A stretch of DNA of 46,408 nt from a virus (taxonomy: Duplodnaviria > Heunggongvirae > Uroviricota > Caudoviricetes): the IMG/VR virus record IMGVR_UViG_2740892219_000006. One strand, 5' to 3'. Made by a program: the position numbers and the translations under genes. The notes beneath the pieces are model-generated. The model had not been told where the DNA came from and made no database searches. It saw only the letters and a list, made by a program, of their open reading frames with translations. This document shows, one piece after another, positions 1 to 46,408 of the stretch (positions are counted from its first letter, which is position 1; every line of letters begins with the position of its first letter).

Positions 1-30
1 GCTTTTAGCAACAATCGCGGTTTAGAAAGT

Positions 31-585
31 ATGCAATATGGTTATGCGAGGGTGTCAACTTTTGACCAGAATTTGGAATTACAACTGGAGGCGCTCAGGA
101 GTTCAGGATGTGACCGGATTTTTGAAGATAAAATATCCGGTGCTAAATCAAAACGACCAGGACTTGATAAGCTACTGAAGGTGTTACGGCCGGGCGATAC
201 GGTTATTGTCTGGAAGCTGGACCGAATGGGGCGTTCTCTGATTCATCTTGTTGATTTACTAAACTATTTTTTATCAAACAACATTGAGTTTATTTCGATT
301 ACGGAAGGGATAAAAATTAGCACTTCAATTGGCCGCTTTGCCTACACGATGCTGAGTGCAGTCGCAGAGATGGAGCGGGAAAATATGATTGAGAGAACGC
401 GTGCAGGATTGGCGGTGGCAAGGGCTAACGGCAGGATAGGAGGACGCCGCTCAAAATTGGCACCAGAGCAATGGGAACAGATCGGAAGGCTTATTGCGAA
501 TGGTGTTTCACGTAAGCGGATAGCGATTATCTTCGATGTTACCTTATCCACGCTTTACCGCAGGTTTCCGGCTGGGAATCATTGA
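31..585 (+). CDS. Serine DNA invertase (Hin/Gin/Cin/Pin family)
   Basis: 184-aa ORF; N-terminal GYARVST catalytic-serine motif and overall resolvase/invertase pattern with C-terminal HTH; size typical of tail-fibre invertases. Confidence 0.9.
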   Translation: MQYGYARVSTFDQNLELQLEALRSSGCDRIFEDKISGAKSKRPGLDKLLKVLRPGDTVIVWKLDRMGRSLIHLVDLLNYFLSNNIEFISITEGIKISTSIGRFAYTMLSAVAEMERENMIERTRAGLAVARANGRIGGRRSKLAPEQWEQIGRLIANGVSRKRIAIIFDVTLSTLYRRFPAGNH

Positions 586-715
586 CTGGAGTTAGGCCAG
601 TAGTATGATGCTCGCAAAACGAGATCCAATTTAGATCCTTTTACTGGTGGATTATCGTTCGATCAGTGAGAGACTTCGTGCATGACCGAAAGTGTTGTGG
701 TAGAGTTCTCTTAAA

Positions 716-730: not shown

Positions 731-780
731 TATGATTGTGGGTGTCTGGTTGGAAACTGACCAGATATGGAAACAAAAAG

Positions 781-806
781 CCCGCAGATAAATCTGCGGG
801 CTTCTT
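781..806 (-). terminator. Stem-loop with U-tract on the minus strand; possible terminator of a CopA-like antisense RNA
   Basis: GCCCGCAGA-TAAA-TCTGCGGGC hairpin; on the minus strand it is followed by CTTTTTGTTTCC; lies antisense to the repA leader as in IncFII copy control. Confidence 0.35.
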
Positions 807-897: not shown

Positions 898-1746
898 ATG
901 GATAGACCAATGCCGTCTCTACGTTCAGCTTACGTTTGTAATTTGTCGCCGGAGTTCCAGCCTCCAAAGCACCATACGCACAAGCTGCCGCTGGTGTTAT
1001 CTGATGCTTTACAGCGCATTAATGGGCGTGATCTTACGTGTGAGGTTGCGTTCTACGTTAATCAACCGTCAGAGCGGAAGCGCCGGATAAACGAGCATCG
1101 TCGTCGGGCGATTAATGCTGTGATCGCTGCGATTTTGCACCATGTAAACATCATTTCTAAGCGGGTTCTGGTTAGTGCTGAGGCGTTGGCTGATTTTTGC
1201 GGCCTGTCTACCGTATCCGAAGCTGGGAACAAGTCTATAACGCGCTGTACAAGGGCGTTGTCGCAACTGAAAGCGTTAGGTTTTATTGATTATGAACGTC
1301 GCTGGGATCGGGTGAATAAACAGTATTGGCCAGCGAAAATAGAGATTCGTGATCAACTGCTGGAAACCGTTGGTATTACTGAACAAGCATGGAGACGTGC
1401 GGTTAGCCAGAAACTTAATTACTTCAATGCGAAGAATAGCGAACGGCTTAAAAAAGCGATAACGGAGGCTGATTATAAGCGTATTGTTATTCAGGAGCAG
1501 ATGGAGAATGTATGGCGTCAGAGGAAGACGGCCAGAGAGATAAAGGCAAAACAGAAAGCAGCGGAGAGAGCTGCGCGTCTTGTTCGGGAAAAGGGAGAGG
1601 CCGAACTTCGTCATCAAATCACTAGAGAGGTTAGCCAGGAATTTGCTGATGGCATGTATCCTGGAGCTGACCTTGCATATTTACGATCCCTCGTTGAGCA
1701 GCGTTATAACAGGTTAAGAAAGACCTGGAAATCACTCCAACATTAA
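898..1746 (+). CDS. repA: Plasmid replication initiator RepA (IncFII RepA1-like)
   Basis: Translation contains SITRCTRALSQLKALGFIDYE and an HRRRAINAV block, recalled as matching IncFII RepA1 conserved regions; start placed at ATG 898 (about 283 aa) rather than the upstream alternative start of the ORF track. Confidence 0.75.
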   Translation: MDRPMPSLRSAYVCNLSPEFQPPKHHTHKLPLVLSDALQRINGRDLTCEVAFYVNQPSERKRRINEHRRRAINAVIAAILHHVNIISKRVLVSAEALADFCGLSTVSEAGNKSITRCTRALSQLKALGFIDYERRWDRVNKQYWPAKIEIRDQLLETVGITEQAWRRAVSQKLNYFNAKNSERLKKAITEADYKRIVIQEQMENVWRQRKTAREIKAKQKAAERAARLVREKGEAELRHQITREVSQEFADGMYPGADLAYLRSLVEQRYNRLRKTWKSLQH

Positions 1747-5231: not shown

Positions 5232-5924
5232 AGTCTGAAATTTAAATCTTGCTTGGTAGGCTGGATTTAAAAAGACACCTCTTGATTGGGGCGGCTTTCT
5301 TGCGTCTAAAGATAATCAAATCTTTTTGCGCCTGCAACCCCTTTTTTACTGGTGCCCATTTCAGACTCACGCTCGCGTCGTTGTCTTTGCCACTTCGTTG
5401 GGTTCGGTGTTTTTGGGCGAAGTGGCGCGCGGGTATGCGTACAAGGGGAAAGTGTGCTGACGCAAGCCAGGAACAGCGATCTAAACTAAGTCGAGTCTGA
5501 GAAAGGCAGGAGTGCGACAACTCGCCTGTGCTCTATGAGCAGAAGAAGGTATATCAGACGACCAATGGCATGATTGTGGGCCACAGGGCGCACACGGCGG
5601 CGAAGCATTGGAAACGATGTGGAGCTATCTGGTGGCATGAGTTCCGGTACTCGATCTCGAGCTTTTTTTGATGCTTTTGAGAAGGGGCCGGAACTCCGGT
5701 AAAGGGCACCCTGTATGGGGGGAGGGGGGGGTGTGTCTGAAGGGTGGTTATCGGTTATGGTGGAATTATGATGCGTAGAAAAGCGAGTTTGCTGCAAGCT
5801 ATTGGGTCCATTATTTCTTTGTTTCCGGCAGTTGATCATTTTCGTCATATGGCGACGCGTTCCAGTATGGGCTTGGCGCGTGATGCTGACGCTATTCGAA
5901 AGGATTTTCAGAACGTCTCTGGCG

Positions 5925-5966: not shown

Positions 5967-7112
5967 TTATGGTCTGCTTTTCTGTGCCAGCTTATCAGCA
6001 CATGTTTTTATCAGATCCTGTAGTGTCCTGGCTGGCAGGTTTGCATCCAGAACGCTGAGTATGCTGTTGTGATCAGCCTGGTCGACTACTTTGCCTGTCG
6101 GTGGTAGTAGCTTGAGCTGAGGATTCAGGTTTTCGTCAAAGCTGATAAGTGCTCTGGCGTTTCTGAGCAGATCAAGAAGTAAGGCTGATATCACATTTTC
6201 CTGAGTCATTGCTGGCAGATTTAGCGTCGCTTTGGTTTTCCCTGTTGCCTTGTCAAACTCCTTGATTAGTTCCTTCCTGTAGTTCGGTTCCGTTAATAGC
6301 CGATTATGCTCTGTTGCCGCGCGGATAATCGTTTTTTCCTGGTACAGTCGTTTAGCCAGATCGCGCTCGTACTGTGTTTTTAACACGCTGCTGATAGCGT
6401 TAAAGGCTTCAATGTAGGCCAGCTTGATATCCTTCACGCCTGGGCCGTCGATACTTTCCATGAGCAAGGTAAATCCGTCTTTTGTCATGCGATAGATTGT
6501 TATTTCGCGGTCGCTTCCTTCCAGCGGTCGTTGCTCTTTAAAGAAATGACGTGCCGCAGCCGTGCGAGGAATGCGTAGCGCATCGATGGCCATAACGATG
6601 GAATTGTTTGTGGTGCTGAATGCCTGGGCAACATCGGCTGAGGTTGTGAGTGGCTCGTTGTTGCACACCTTAATGTAAAACATCGGTTTGGCGTTGAGCG
6701 TATCGACAACCTCACGAGCATTGTTTGGCGAGACGGTAACGGTCGCGGCCGTTTGCGCGTTCTGGTTGAAGTAGCAGTCTTCCAGCCGTTCGAACACATC
6801 CCACGCTTGGTTAGTTTCAAGCATTTTGGCGTGACGTGCAGCCCCGCGTTCTGTCCAGAGGATGAGGGAGCGGACTTTAGGTGAAACTGGATTTTGTGAG
6901 TAGTTTAAAGCTACCCGCAATTCTTTAAGGTCATTACCAACAACTTTGAAAAAGTGTTTCCCTTCAACGAAACGTACTTTGTTCTCATGATGATTCTGGC
7001 GAATACGCACCGGCTCAGTGCCGTAAAGCTGTGCCAGTAACTCGGTAGTAATGACAGGGATTTGGTTATGCAGGATAGGCTGTAGGGTGTTAACGGTCGG
7101 AAGCGTTTTCAT
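5967..7112 (-). CDS. Phage antirepressor (ORF6N-type N-terminal domain plus Rha-like domain)
   Basis: 381 aa; N-terminal ELLAQLYGTEPVRIRQNHHENKVRFVEGKHFF is recalled as ORF6N/Ant-like; central region ITIYRMTKDGFTLLMESIDGPG..IKLAYIEAFN is recalled as Rha-like. Confidence 0.7.
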   Translation of the reverse strand: MKTLPTVNTLQPILHNQIPVITTELLAQLYGTEPVRIRQNHHENKVRFVEGKHFFKVVGNDLKELRVALNYSQNPVSPKVRSLILWTERGAARHAKMLETNQAWDVFERLEDCYFNQNAQTAATVTVSPNNAREVVDTLNAKPMFYIKVCNNEPLTTSADVAQAFSTTNNSIVMAIDALRIPRTAAARHFFKEQRPLEGSDREITIYRMTKDGFTLLMESIDGPGVKDIKLAYIEAFNAISSVLKTQYERDLAKRLYQEKTIIRAATEHNRLLTEPNYRKELIKEFDKATGKTKATLNLPAMTQENVISALLLDLLRNARALISFDENLNPQLKLLPPTGKVVDQADHNSILSVLDANLPARTLQDLIKTCADKLAQKSRP

Positions 7113-7300
7113 TTTGTACCTCCCATAACTACTTTGGTTACGAGGGAGATTTTTGCGTCAGAAACAGTGTTATCGTTGCTGGCGATGCGCATAGCTTCGC
7201 GCTCGATGATTTCAGCCAGGCGGAATTTATCGGCGTATGAGGCTTTCTTGAGAAGGATCTTTACGAGGTTGACGTAATAGTCATGGGGTAGGTTTGTCAT
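7109..7300 (-). CDS. Small protein (63 aa) translationally coupled to the antirepressor
   Basis: ATG 7300 with GGAGAT RBS; stop overlaps the antirepressor start. Confidence 0.45.
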   Translation of the reverse strand: MTNLPHDYYVNLVKILLKKASYADKFRLAEIIEREAMRIASNDNTVSDAKISLVTKVVMGGTK

Positions 7301-7594
7301 TGTGATATCTCCGATTAAAGGAACTATCACCACCAATGACGCCAATCAATATGGTGGTGAGACGTACAGGGTTGGCGTAACCGGCACAATGACAAACCCG
7401 GCGCGGATTTCTCCGCCCCCGCACGCCCCACCATAATTTGGGTGTAGCAGTGCTTTACGCATAAAAAAACCGCTAACGCGGTATGCGCCATTGTGCAATC
7501 GGGACGCCAATCCCGACCGTAGATTTTGCTACGGCTCGGAAAGTGTCCACCAATGGCGCATTCATGTCAATACGGCGGGATTTTAACAGAGACA

Positions 7595-8442: not shown

Positions 8443-8847
8443 GGACGGTTCTTTCGTGCTGATCGGATTCGCGGTCCTTTCAGCATTACGTTGTTGTATA
8501 AACAACCACGCAAGCACAAGCAGCAAGTTGATTTTACCCAAAAGGTAATAATAGTCCACTATTATGCTTCAAAAAATTGTGGTTCTTGTTGTGTCTGCAA
8601 ACTCACAGATTGTGGGTAGGTTACTGATTTTGTGAAAATAAACTGGTTTTTTCGTTTAATTTATTTCCTATTACTAATCTTAAAATAATCGTAAAATACC
8701 TGTGGACCTTCCCGCCGATTCGCACCCGGGCACCGACTTTAGGGGAGGATTTCCTGTTGCCGTACATGCAAGCACAAGCAGCCGTGCTTGCTCTCGCGTT
8801 GTTTTCGTCGGTGGGGATGCCGTGAAACGGCCTGTAAGGGCCATACA

Positions 8848-8970
8848 ATGAAAAAATACTGTATGTGTATTTTTATCGTTGTTACTGGGGCTTTGTTTAC
8901 GCCACATGGGGAGGGTTGGAAGATTACTGATAACGCTCTGAATGTGACGATAAACATTAGCAGCAAGTAG
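8848..8970 (+). CDS. Possible small hydrophobic peptide (40 aa)
   Basis: MKKYCMCIFIVVTGALFT signal-like N-terminus; immediately followed by a strong terminator; weak RBS. Confidence 0.25.
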   Translation: MKKYCMCIFIVVTGALFTPHGEGWKITDNALNVTINISSK

Positions 8971-8975
8971 CGATT

Positions 8976-8998
8976 AGGCCCCTTCGGGGGCCTTTTTT
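8976..8998 (+). terminator. Rho-independent terminator
   Basis: AGGCCCC-TTCG-GGGGCCT followed by TTTTTT. Confidence 0.7.
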
Positions 8999-20148: not shown

Positions 20149-20224
20149 GGCCCCTTAGCTCAGTGGTTAGAGCAGGCGACTCATAATCGCACGGTCATCG
20201 GTTCAAATCCGGTAGGGGCCACCA
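20149..20224 (+). tRNA. tRNA with CAU anticodon (Met or lysidine-dependent Ile2 type), 3-prime CCA encoded
   Basis: Manually folded cloverleaf: 7-bp acceptor GGCCCCT/AGGGGCC, D-stem GCTC/GAGC, anticodon loop CTCATAA, T-stem ATCGG/CCGGT with TTCAAAT loop; the 5-prime half resembles the E. coli Ile2 tRNA from memory. Confidence 0.85.
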
Positions 20225-45063: not shown

Positions 45064-46408
45064 GTGAGTAAATTATTATTTACGATGACTGACGCCGGGC
45101 GTCAGGAGTTGGTTAATGCCAACAAAACAGGAACAAATAAAGTTGAGATTGTTTCTGTTGGTTTAGGTAGTAGATATTATGTCACGTCAACCTCACAAAC
45201 AAATATAACAGACGAAATAAAACGACTTACCACAATAGGTGGCAAAGTTGTTTCCCCTGATACAATTCATGTAACGGCGAAGGATGATAGTAAAGATGAG
45301 TATGTTGTCCATACAATAGGATTGTATACAAATAAGGGAACGTTGTTTGCTGTATACTCGCAAGAACAAGCAATAATAAATAAAGCATCATCTACTATTG
45401 CTTTAATATCAAGTGACATAGCAATTAAGACTCTTGATACTAAAAATATTACATTTGGTGATATTGAGTTTATTAATCCTCCCGCGACCGAAACTGTTGT
45501 TGGGGTTGCAAGATTTGCTAATGAACAAGAAATTGATGCAGGTACAGATGATTCCCTTGCTGTTTCAGCAAAGCGGCTTAAGCAAGCCATTGTGAAACAT
45601 GAGCAATCACGTAATCATCCTGATGCAACTTTAACCTCAAAAGGCTTTGTTCAACTTAGCAGCGCCACCAATAGCACGTCTGAAACGCTTGCTGCGACGC
45701 CTAAGGCTGTTAAGGCAGCATATGACCTGGCTAACGCTAAATACACCGCACAGGACGCTACCACGGCGCGAAAAGGGATTGTTCAGCTTAGTAGCGCAAC
45801 TAACAGCGATTCTGAGACGCTGGCAGCAACGCCAAAGGCGGTAAAGGCTGCATATGACCTTGCTAACGCTAAATACACCGCACAGGACGCTACCACGGCG
45901 CGAAAAGGGATTGTTCAACTCAGTAGCGCCACCAACAGCACGTCTGAAACACTGGCCGCGACATCGAAAGCTGTAAAGGTGGTAATGGATGAAACGAACA
46001 AGAAAGCGCCCCTGAACAGTCCGGCGCTGACCGGAACACCAACAACACCAACTGCGCCAAAAGGTACTAACAATACTCAGATCGCAAGCACGGCTTATGT
46101 TATGGCTGCGATCGCTGCCCTCGTGGACTCGTCGCCTGACGCACTGAATACGCTGAACGAGCTGGCTGCGGCGTTGGGCAACGACCCGAATTTTGCGACC
46201 ACCATGACTAACGCGCTTGCGGGTAAGCAACCGAAAGATGCCACCCTGACGGCGCTGGCCGGGCTTGCTACTGCGGCAGACAGGTTTCCGTATTTTACGG
46301 GGAATGATGTCGCCAGCCTGGCAACTCTGACAAAAGTCGGGCGGGATATTCTTGCGAAATCGACCGTTGCCGCCGTTATCGAATACCTCGGTTTACAGGA
46401 AACGGTAA
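45064..46408 (+). CDS. Tail fibre protein (P2 gpH / Mu S-like), 3-prime partial: ORF runs off the window
   Basis: GTG start after AAGGA; the sequence closely resembles P2 gpH as recalled, including Phage_fiber_2-type repeats and the C-terminal AVIEYLGLQETV segment; no stop before the window end. Confidence 0.85.
   Translation, partial: MSKLLFTMTDAGRQELVNANKTGTNKVEIVSVGLGSRYYVTSTSQTNITDEIKRLTTIGGKVVSPDTIHVTAKDDSKDEYVVHTIGLYTNKGTLFAVYSQEQAIINKASSTIALISSDIAIKTLDTKNITFGDIEFINPPATETVVGVARFANEQEIDAGTDDSLAVSAKRLKQAIVKHEQSRNHPDATLTSKGFVQLSSATNSTSETLAATPKAVKAAYDLANAKYTAQDATTARKGIVQLSSATNSDSETLAATPKAVKAAYDLANAKYTAQDATTARKGIVQLSSATNSTSETLAATSKAVKVVMDETNKKAPLNSPALTGTPTTPTAPKGTNNTQIASTAYVMAAIAALVDSSPDALNTLNELAAALGNDPNFATTMTNALAGKQPKDATLTALAGLATAADRFPYFTGNDVASLATLTKVGRDILAKSTVAAVIEYLGLQETV
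45640..46000 (+). repeat. Tandem 132-bp coding repeats (about 2.6 copies) inside the tail fibre gene
   Basis: Repeated block encoding KG(F/I)VQLSSATNS.SETLAATPKAVKAAYDLANAKYTAQDATTAR. Confidence 0.85.
46376..46401. other. gix/cix-like invertase recombination site inside the tail fibre gene
   Basis: TTATCGAATACC-TC-GGTTTACAGGAA, close to the Mu gix site as recalled (TTATCCAAAACCTCGGTTTACAGGAA). Confidence 0.6.

Follow-up and report, generated by a model that had tools for sequence, protein, structure and literature searches.

Switching of the tail fibre end by a DNA invertase, as a means of changing host range, has been described for Mu, P1, e14 and P2-like prophages (PMC3575834, PMC4272514, PMC6799933), and tail fibre inversion regions are already on record for other phage-plasmids and prophages (PMC6799933, PMC4272514). 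Invertases of this kind have a catalytic serine near residue 9–10; the role of Ser9 is given in PMC3575834. Three residues of Hin, Q151, R154 and L155, have been reported as unique to Fis-dependent invertases, and residue 47 of Hin is a lysine in all 15 invertases that were aligned (PMC3798978). For hin, the distance from enhancer to site is approximately 100 bp (PMC3798978). That the Mu enhancer lies within gin is stated by Kahmann et al. 1985 in their title (cited in PMC3798978).

Herein, we describe a tail fibre locus in a 46,408-nucleotide stretch of viral DNA (Caudoviricetes; IMG/VR record IMGVR_UViG_2740892219_000006), which is referred to in its entirety as the window. Positions 46376–46401 are very probably the fibre-side crossover site of a host-range switch of the Mu G-segment type, carried by an E. 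coli phage-plasmid of approximately 49 kb, and the window is without the segment that would flip. The carrier encodes an IncFII-type RepA, a ParA homologue and a toxin-antitoxin pair, and plasmid matches to the window were present in 114 of 5,426 complete E. coli genomes. A place for it in the pSLy3 group of phage-plasmids was rejected, as pSLy3 belongs to the SSU5 supergroup (PMC7969092). We found no paper on the family of 48-kb phage-plasmids to which the window belongs, or on the vB_YpM phages that are part of it. The features of the locus are collected in Table 1.

Table 1. Coordinates of the features of the fibre-switch locus in the window
Feature	Position	Strand	Basis or remark
Invertase leader, containing the pseudo-site 5–30	1..30	+	Aligns to the leader of Mu gin rather than to gixR
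Gin-family serine DNA invertase, 184 aa, catalytic Ser9	31..585	+	Resolvase and HTH_7
Candidate Fis-dependent recombinational enhancer, 5' end of the invertase gene	52..115	+	Homology to Mu gin, sequence only
Constant N-terminal part of the tail fibre, 435 codons to the crossover point	45085..46389	+	ORF translation, Pfam Phage_fiber_2
26-bp crossover site (gixL equivalent), inside the tail fibre gene	46376..46401	+	Mu gix match 24/26
Outer half-site	46376..46387	+	Remains with the constant fibre part
Inner half-site	46390..46401	+	Part of the segment that inverts
Initial 19 bp of the invertible segment, GGTTTACAGGAAACGGTAA, forming the inner repeat arm	46390..46408	+	Repeat arms in relatives, context of the window end

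A crossover site inside the tail fibre gene

The tail fibre ORF opens at 45085 and runs for 441 codons and one base before it is cut by the window end. Three Phage_fiber_2 repeats were identified in it (Pfam, E 1.5e-61), and in the relatives of the window the same ORF extends to a fibre of 682–792 aa. A gix-like 26-bp site had been reported in its last codons, and this report held when the Mu site itself was used as a query. The sequence of Mu gix, TTATCCAAAACCTCGGTTTACAGGAA, was verified on NC_000929, where each of the two annotated boundaries of the G segment has a copy, the two being inverted relative to each other, one per strand. We ran this query across the window, allowing up to 3 mismatches, with 100 dinucleotide-preserving shuffles serving as the control. 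The sole place recovered was 46376–46401, where the plus strand reads TTATCGAATACCTCGGTTTACAGGAA and differs from Mu gix by 2 mismatches; none of the shuffles (0/100) gave a match at the same threshold.

The site is an imperfect palindrome of 26 bp with an asymmetric 2-bp core, TC, which is the form of the Gin, Hin, Cin and Pin sites. The core dinucleotide occupies 46388–46389, in codon 435 of the ORF, and the site as a whole covers the codons V-I-E-Y-L-G-L-Q-E. The window ends in ...GCCGCCGTTATCGAATACCTCGGTTTACAGGAAACGGTAA.

The invertible segment in relatives of the window

When the end of the window is joined to its start, the fibre frame reads ...LGLQETVSF* and stops two codons on, as had been noted from the sequence beforehand. 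To that observation had been attached the proposal that the invertible segment is missing from the window, and comparison with relatives supported it. When a 7-kb query was made by joining the last 3.5 kb of the window to its first 3.5 kb, 33 plasmid records gave matches that covered at least 80% of the query length. The best of them, E. fergusonii pRHB23-C01_4 (99.4% identity), is a 48,686-bp circle collinear with the window, and at the window junction a single piece of 3099 bp is skipped. The window ends also matched the Yersinia phages vB_YpM_39, 41 and 44 (OR545053-5) at 96–99% identity, with 3074–3131 bp between end and start in these circular genomes. Taken as a whole, the window is collinear, at 97–99% identity, with these three phages and with complete circular phage-plasmids of 48–49 kb. 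In every complete relative, this gap was 2973–3131 bp and held alternative fibre ends and chaperones.

The order of the segment in these relatives is a variable fibre end, a chaperone, an opposite-strand chaperone and an opposite-strand variable fibre end, followed by the invertase gene. This Mu-like layout was found in 3 phages and in more than 20 plasmids or contigs. In the complete relatives, both chaperones of the segment are Caudo_TAP proteins (175 aa and 177 aa). Members of the phage-plasmid family have different variable fibre ends. Between vB_YpM_41 and vB_YpM_44, the two fibre alternatives were seen to have recombined homologously at their inverted 3' ends.

The left site in the relatives flanks the invertible segment and is identical to that of the window or one base off. 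The right site is inverted and reads TTCGCAAAAACCTCGGTTT(A/G)CAGGAA as its reverse complement, with the core TC. It ends exactly 34 bp before the equivalent of window base 1 in 26 of the 26 relatives scanned; the partner therefore lies wholly outside the window. Within the window, no second inverted site was found, the best other match having 9 mismatches. In six relatives scanned for sites with up to 8 mismatches, each locus held only two, and a multi-site system of the Min or shufflon-like kind was rejected on this count. A third site is present on one metagenome contig (L047).

Judging from the relatives, the replicon from which the window derives would have a segment, a partner site and two orientations of its own. 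Leftwards of base 1, it would be expected to carry TTGCCTCTGTGTCGTCTGAACGATATTTTTT(T/C)CC and then a site reading TTCCTG(C/T)AAACCGAGGTTTTTGCGAA. At the other end, base 46408 would continue in two alternative ways, ...GGTAAA-CAGGGC... or ...GGTAAA-TCAGGC....

Both orientations among assemblies of one strain

Four independent complete assemblies of ATCC 25922 (Seattle 1946) carry a plasmid of this family, whose invertase is 98.9% identical to that of the window. In CP009073 and CP149501, a fibre gene of 2388 nt is followed by the chaperone WP_000972173, while in CP032086 and CP158444 a fibre gene of 2451 nt is followed by the chaperone WP_000972103. The two pairs of records differ by a clean inversion of 3071 bp at 99.97% identity, and the flanks are collinear. 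Since the assemblies, split two and two, present the segment in both orientations, the switch is active in a near-identical relative, and the flipping that had been presumed for this locus by analogy with Mu and P1 was thus observed in its family. Another full inversion separates pCREC-544_3 from pRHB16-C19_3 (98.2% identity).

The ATCC 25922 records also locate the exchange. One pair of records has G at position 20 of the left site and A at position 20 of the right site; in the other pair these two bases are exchanged, while positions 1–10 are fixed. Position 20 swaps and positions 1–10 stay; therefore, the crossover took place within positions 11–19, about the central TC, which is also its place in Mu. 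Three variants of the inner half-site (ACAGGAA, GCAGGAA and ACGAGAA) occur on either side of the segment among contigs that encode exactly the invertase of the window.

The invertase and its candidate enhancer

The ORF that starts at base 31 contains a Resolvase domain (E 3.4e-44) and an HTH_7 domain (E 2.9e-13). Its closest solved structure is Mu Gin (3uj3; 210 bits, E 1.6e-61, 55% identity), the match to gamma-delta resolvase being weaker (109 bits, E 1.6e-30), and its Ser9 aligns with Ser9 of Gin. The Gin/Hin-like invertase recognised at the window start in the preliminary description is thus placed in the Gin family. A simple scan for a sigma-70-like promoter upstream of the gene, in the window and in pRHB23-C01_4, returned none.

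Residues that contact Fis, in helix 1 of the DNA-binding domain, are kept: the equivalents of Hin Q151, R154 and L155 are the Q, R and L in the stretch EQIGRL of the window invertase, which aligns with EQAGRL of Gin. For these comparisons, the residue numbers of Hin were carried over to the window invertase through what we take to be the Hin sequence. The basic patch of helix B (Hin K47, R48 and K51) is not complete in the window invertase. Its helix B reads L-D46-K-L-L-K where Gin has L-K-R-A-L-K, so that the first basic residue is an aspartate and the other two are lysines. This aspartate is shared by SJ46 Pin and by the ATCC 25922 plasmid invertase. Because the latter has Asp46 and still inverts, Asp46 is a clade-specific variant and not a defect, with no sign of lost function. 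Contacts with the enhancer may nevertheless differ. It is conceivable, although we regard it as unlikely, that the clade with Asp for Lys, namely the phage-plasmid family and SJ46, engages the Fis-bound enhancer unlike Gin, Hin and Cin, which might alter its enhancer dependence or switching rate, and that homologous recombination between the inverted fibre 3' ends could in addition allow four fibre-chaperone pairings instead of two.

Two 15-mers of the form G-N13-C were found near the start of the invertase gene, GTGTCAACTTTTGAC at 52–66 and GTTCAGGATGTGACC at 101–115, with centres 49 bp apart. At the homologous codons, Mu gin has GTATCAACAAATGAC and GTGCAGGATGTGAAC with an equal 49-bp spacing (coding positions 22–36 and 71–85). 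In the Gin, Hin and Cin systems, an enhancer with two Fis sites acts in cis from the 5' end of the invertase gene; its precise position inside Mu gin is presumed here. In the window replicon, approximately 105 bp would separate the first 15-mer from the right-site centre, a distance similar to that in hin. Where the window invertase and Mu Gin share an amino acid, the same codon is used at 15 of 26 positions in codons 1–45 and at 21 of 73 positions elsewhere (Fisher p = 0.009). This excess of synonymous conservation fits a second constraint on codons 1–45, and the region 52–115 would accordingly be a plausible Fis-bound enhancer by its homology to gin.

A model for the switch

The following course of events is proposed for the locus. 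Dimers of the invertase would bind the site at 46376–46401 and its inverted partner, whose expected place is 64 bp before the start codon of the invertase gene. With both sites occupied, the dimers would then synapse on the Fis-bound enhancer that is predicted at the 5' end of the invertase gene (approximately 52–115). Ser9 would cut both duplexes at the central TC, presumably at 46388–46389, and one pair of subunits would turn by 180 degrees before the strands are religated. As a result, the segment of approximately 3.1 kb would flip, fusing the fibre N-terminus of 435 codons to either of two C-terminal receptor-binding parts. Each alternative fibre end would be followed by its own assembly chaperone, and the exchange of receptor-binding parts would be expected to change the host range.

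Origin of the window edges

The window boundary had been placed at the junction of the invertible segment. This is correct for the right edge, which lies 7 bp beyond the site and within 1 bp of the inner end of a perfect inverted repeat, and 1 bp short of the point at which the two alternative fibre sequences diverge in the relatives. It is not correct for the left edge, which lies 34 bp outside the segment and is preceded by a T6-7/C2-3 run that varies among relatives. Altogether, the window is the whole replicon minus the segment, the partner site and the 34-bp spacer. Its edge is most likely a short-read assembly break at an invertible repeat that was present in both orientations. If both orientations were in the sample, the assembly graph would branch where the alternative fibre sequences diverge.

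The window could also be read as a true molecule, namely a defective form of the phage-plasmid in which the segment is gone and a truncated fibre gene and an orphan site remain. The rest of the replicon is indeed all in the window, and the family does include members that have another fibre region and no invertase (their matches start from window base 554; shorter gaps, of 2.3 kb, also occur). However, site-specific deletion would leave one hybrid site and the 34-bp spacer, while the window has the full left site followed by 7 bp and neither the spacer nor the right site. Site-specific deletion was rejected as the origin of the missing segment, since the join of end to start is not a hybrid-site product, and a genuine deletion is unlikely because this join keeps a complete left site and has no spacer. 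Moreover, the joined frame stops after 2 codons, which would leave a fibre without its receptor-binding end and a phage without the chaperone; the right edge falls within 1 bp of the place where an assembly graph branches; and other draft contigs break at the same place. We therefore hold a true defective molecule to be improbable, and the window edge is most likely the product of an assembly break.

Contigs of relatives were also irregular at this locus. Two draft-genome contigs (L056 and L057) stop 40–56 bp from the left site, one contig opens with a folded-back copy of the right flank, and in another the segment is joined to a second, unrelated invertase. The longest contigs with the exact window invertase fall into two size classes, 2–5 kb and 20–50 kb. 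There are thus signs that assemblers commonly fail at the switch locus. The left edge of the window is off the repeat, 34 bp outside the partner site, a position not accounted for by a simple break of the graph at this repeat.

The practical value of the locus lies in annotation and assembly, where it cautions against treating the fibre gene of such contigs as complete. Contigs like the window carry a truncated fibre gene in which the receptor-binding part is lost, and host-range prediction from them would be wrong unless the segment of approximately 3.1 kb is recovered.

Sequences that resemble crossover sites

The preliminary description had also pointed to a degenerate half-site at positions 9–30, and this part of it did not stand: the resemblance is at chance level. 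The 26-mer at 5–30 (TTAGCAACAATCGCGGTTTAGAAAGT), which includes CGGTTTAGAAAG at 18–29, might be thought of as a degenerate partner or as a secondary invertase site, for instance for autoregulation or for deletion of the segment. It lies directly before the invertase start codon and equals the right site of the family at 17 of 26 positions; its agreement with Mu gix is 16 of 26. However, four places in the window match the right site equally well (9 mismatches), and the central dinucleotide of 5–30 is GC, not TC. The stretch aligns with the leader of Mu gin, which is no gix site, and the homologous leader of SJ46 lacks the CGGTTTA core, having CTGGTGATAAAG where the window has CGGTTTAGAAAG. Furthermore, the true partner is found 34 bp further upstream in every relative. 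A role for 5–30 as a site is accordingly very improbable.

The site at 46376–46401 is itself insufficient, taken alone, as evidence of a switch, because gene H of P2 has the same sequence, bar 1 mismatch, without a partner site or an invertase. Likewise, for about half of the 28 viral contigs with an identical 69-mer, the stretch retrieved contained no inverted partner. It is therefore the adjacent invertase and the relatives that make the case for function. That the 26 bp are here a mere conserved fibre coding module (...IEYLGLQE...), widely exchanged and not a recombination site, as P2 and the partnerless contigs could suggest, is hardly credible for an element that encodes an invertase, beside the position of the partner site in all relatives, and given that the ATCC 25922 plasmid, whose left site is at most one base off, has its breakpoints inside the 26-mer at positions 11–19.

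Comparison with known systems

The crossover site of the window, with its partner and segment as seen in relatives, corresponds closely to the G segment of Mu. The site agrees at 24 of 26 bases, has the same core TC and lies at the same junction between constant and variable fibre parts; the identity continues through the following 7 bases of the segment (ACGGTAA). In the relatives of the window, the segment is approximately 3 kb long, as in Mu, and is arranged likewise, with a fibre end and chaperone followed by a second chaperone and fibre end in opposite orientation. The invertase gene is located just outside the right site, at 54 bp in Mu and 64 bp here, and the enhancer-like 15-mers are at homologous positions of the two invertase genes. 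On the other hand, identity between the window invertase and Gin is only 55%, and Asp takes the place of Lys46 of Gin. The constant part of the fibre comprises 435 codons, compared with approximately 170 in Mu (where a constant region of 509 bp is annotated). The carriers also differ, Mu being a transposing phage and the carrier of the window a phage that replicates as a plasmid with an IncFII-type RepA.

Outside the family of the window, the closest phage invertase and leader are those of Salmonella phage SJ46, which has a C segment of the P1 family (Cin/Pin). DNA identity is 89.6% over window positions 1–539, and the proteins are 88% identical. In SJ46, too, a 34-bp spacer separates the right site from the base equivalent to the window start; SJ46 has Asp46 and is also a phage-plasmid. 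In contrast to the window, its sites have a central TT (CCTTGG) and other inner halves, and its P1-like genome of 103 kb has unrelated head and tail genes.

P2 resembles the window in the fibre gene. The 3' part of the constant fibre region is 88% identical in gene H, which contains the 26-bp sequence with 1 mismatch, but P2 is without a partner site, an invertase and an alternative fibre end. The site in P2 is a non-functional relic of module exchange.

The phages vB_YpM_39, 41 and 44 and the E. coli and E. fergusonii phage-plasmids of approximately 48 kb, including pRHB23-C01_4 and the ATCC 25922 plasmid, belong to the same element family as the window and are collinear with it genome-wide. 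They are 96–99% identical to it at both window ends, and their invertases are 98–100% identical; unlike the window, they have the segment of 3.0–3.1 kb and the right site. The locus is of the Gin, Hin, Cin and Pin kind and works like the G segment of Mu, save on three points: the segment and partner site lie outside the window, the enhancer is a candidate from its sequence, and one residue of helix B is different. The biology of the switch is that of the textbook, and the finding is, in this respect, an ordinary one.

Replication and immunity

The gene for an IncFII-type RepA lies near the start of the window, with a promoter-like site upstream of it (Table). In the relative L004, a hairpin resembling a terminator lies at 7379-7400 (minus strand), which corresponds to about window positions 780-801. 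The arrangement suggests that an antisense RNA controls copy number, and hence that the element is a phage-plasmid and not a prophage that integrates. The layout at 5967-7535 (C4, isrK and the ORF6N/Rha antirepressor-like gene) is that of a P1-type immI immunity region.

Table. Features located in the window, with strand and basis
Feature	Window position	Strand	Basis	Remark
Promoter-like site	582-609			Upstream of the IncFII-type RepA gene
IncFII-type RepA gene	898-1746		Pfam IncFII_repA, E 4.9e-43	
ORF6N/Rha antirepressor-like gene	5967-7112	-		C4 and isrK RNAs just upstream
C4 antisense RNA	7350-7438	-	Rfam	
isrK RNA	7463-7535	-	Rfam	
ryfA RNA	8702-8998	+	Rfam	
tRNA	20149-20221	+	Rfam	
Phage_fiber_2 repeat	45637-45940			Three tandem copies, ~44 residues each, within the constant fibre part

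Variation of the fibre region and the invertible segment among relatives

The matched fibre region measures 2009 nt in the window versus 2045 nt in the Yersinia phages. When the Yersinia phages vB_YpM_41 (L001) and vB_YpM_44 (L002) were compared, the inversion was limited to the middle of the segment, namely the two chaperone genes at segment coordinates 833-2037, while the fibre ends on both sides remained collinear. The breakpoints of this chaperone inversion fall within a 216-nt inverted repeat of 95% identity, located at the 3' ends of both fibre alternatives. The arrangement suggests either homologous recombination, which would re-pair fibres with chaperones, or an assembly artefact.

Part of the plasmid family to which the window belongs (matches H95-H100) is without the invertase gene, and similarity to the window begins at base 554. 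In the invertase-less plasmid members (H95-H100; H43-H55), only about 2.3 kb separates the equivalents of the window end and the window start, an interval apparently holding one fibre end and one chaperone. Draft and metagenome contigs show three irregularities at the locus: two different invertase genes flank the segment in L054 (2188-6555); draft contig L056 begins with a fold-back, its left outer half-site being of the right type (57-82); and metagenome contig L047 has an additional site at 5376-5401, 83 bp upstream of the position that corresponds to the window start. All three are probably mis-joins at the inverted repeats.

Comparison with known invertases and with phage P2

Codon 46 of the invertase (window 166-168) encodes Asp in place of the lysine found in Gin, Hin and Cin; the Asp is common to the Pin of SJ46 and every family member examined. 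Lysine at the Hin K47 position was reported to be invariant among 15 invertases, and in Hin K47 is a helix-B contact to enhancer DNA (PMC3798978).

Gene H of phage P2 contains the 26-bp crossover sequence with one mismatch relative to the window (L059, 3106-3131), accompanied in P2 by neither a partner site nor an invertase. This crossover sequence of gene H is a relic of fibre-module exchange.
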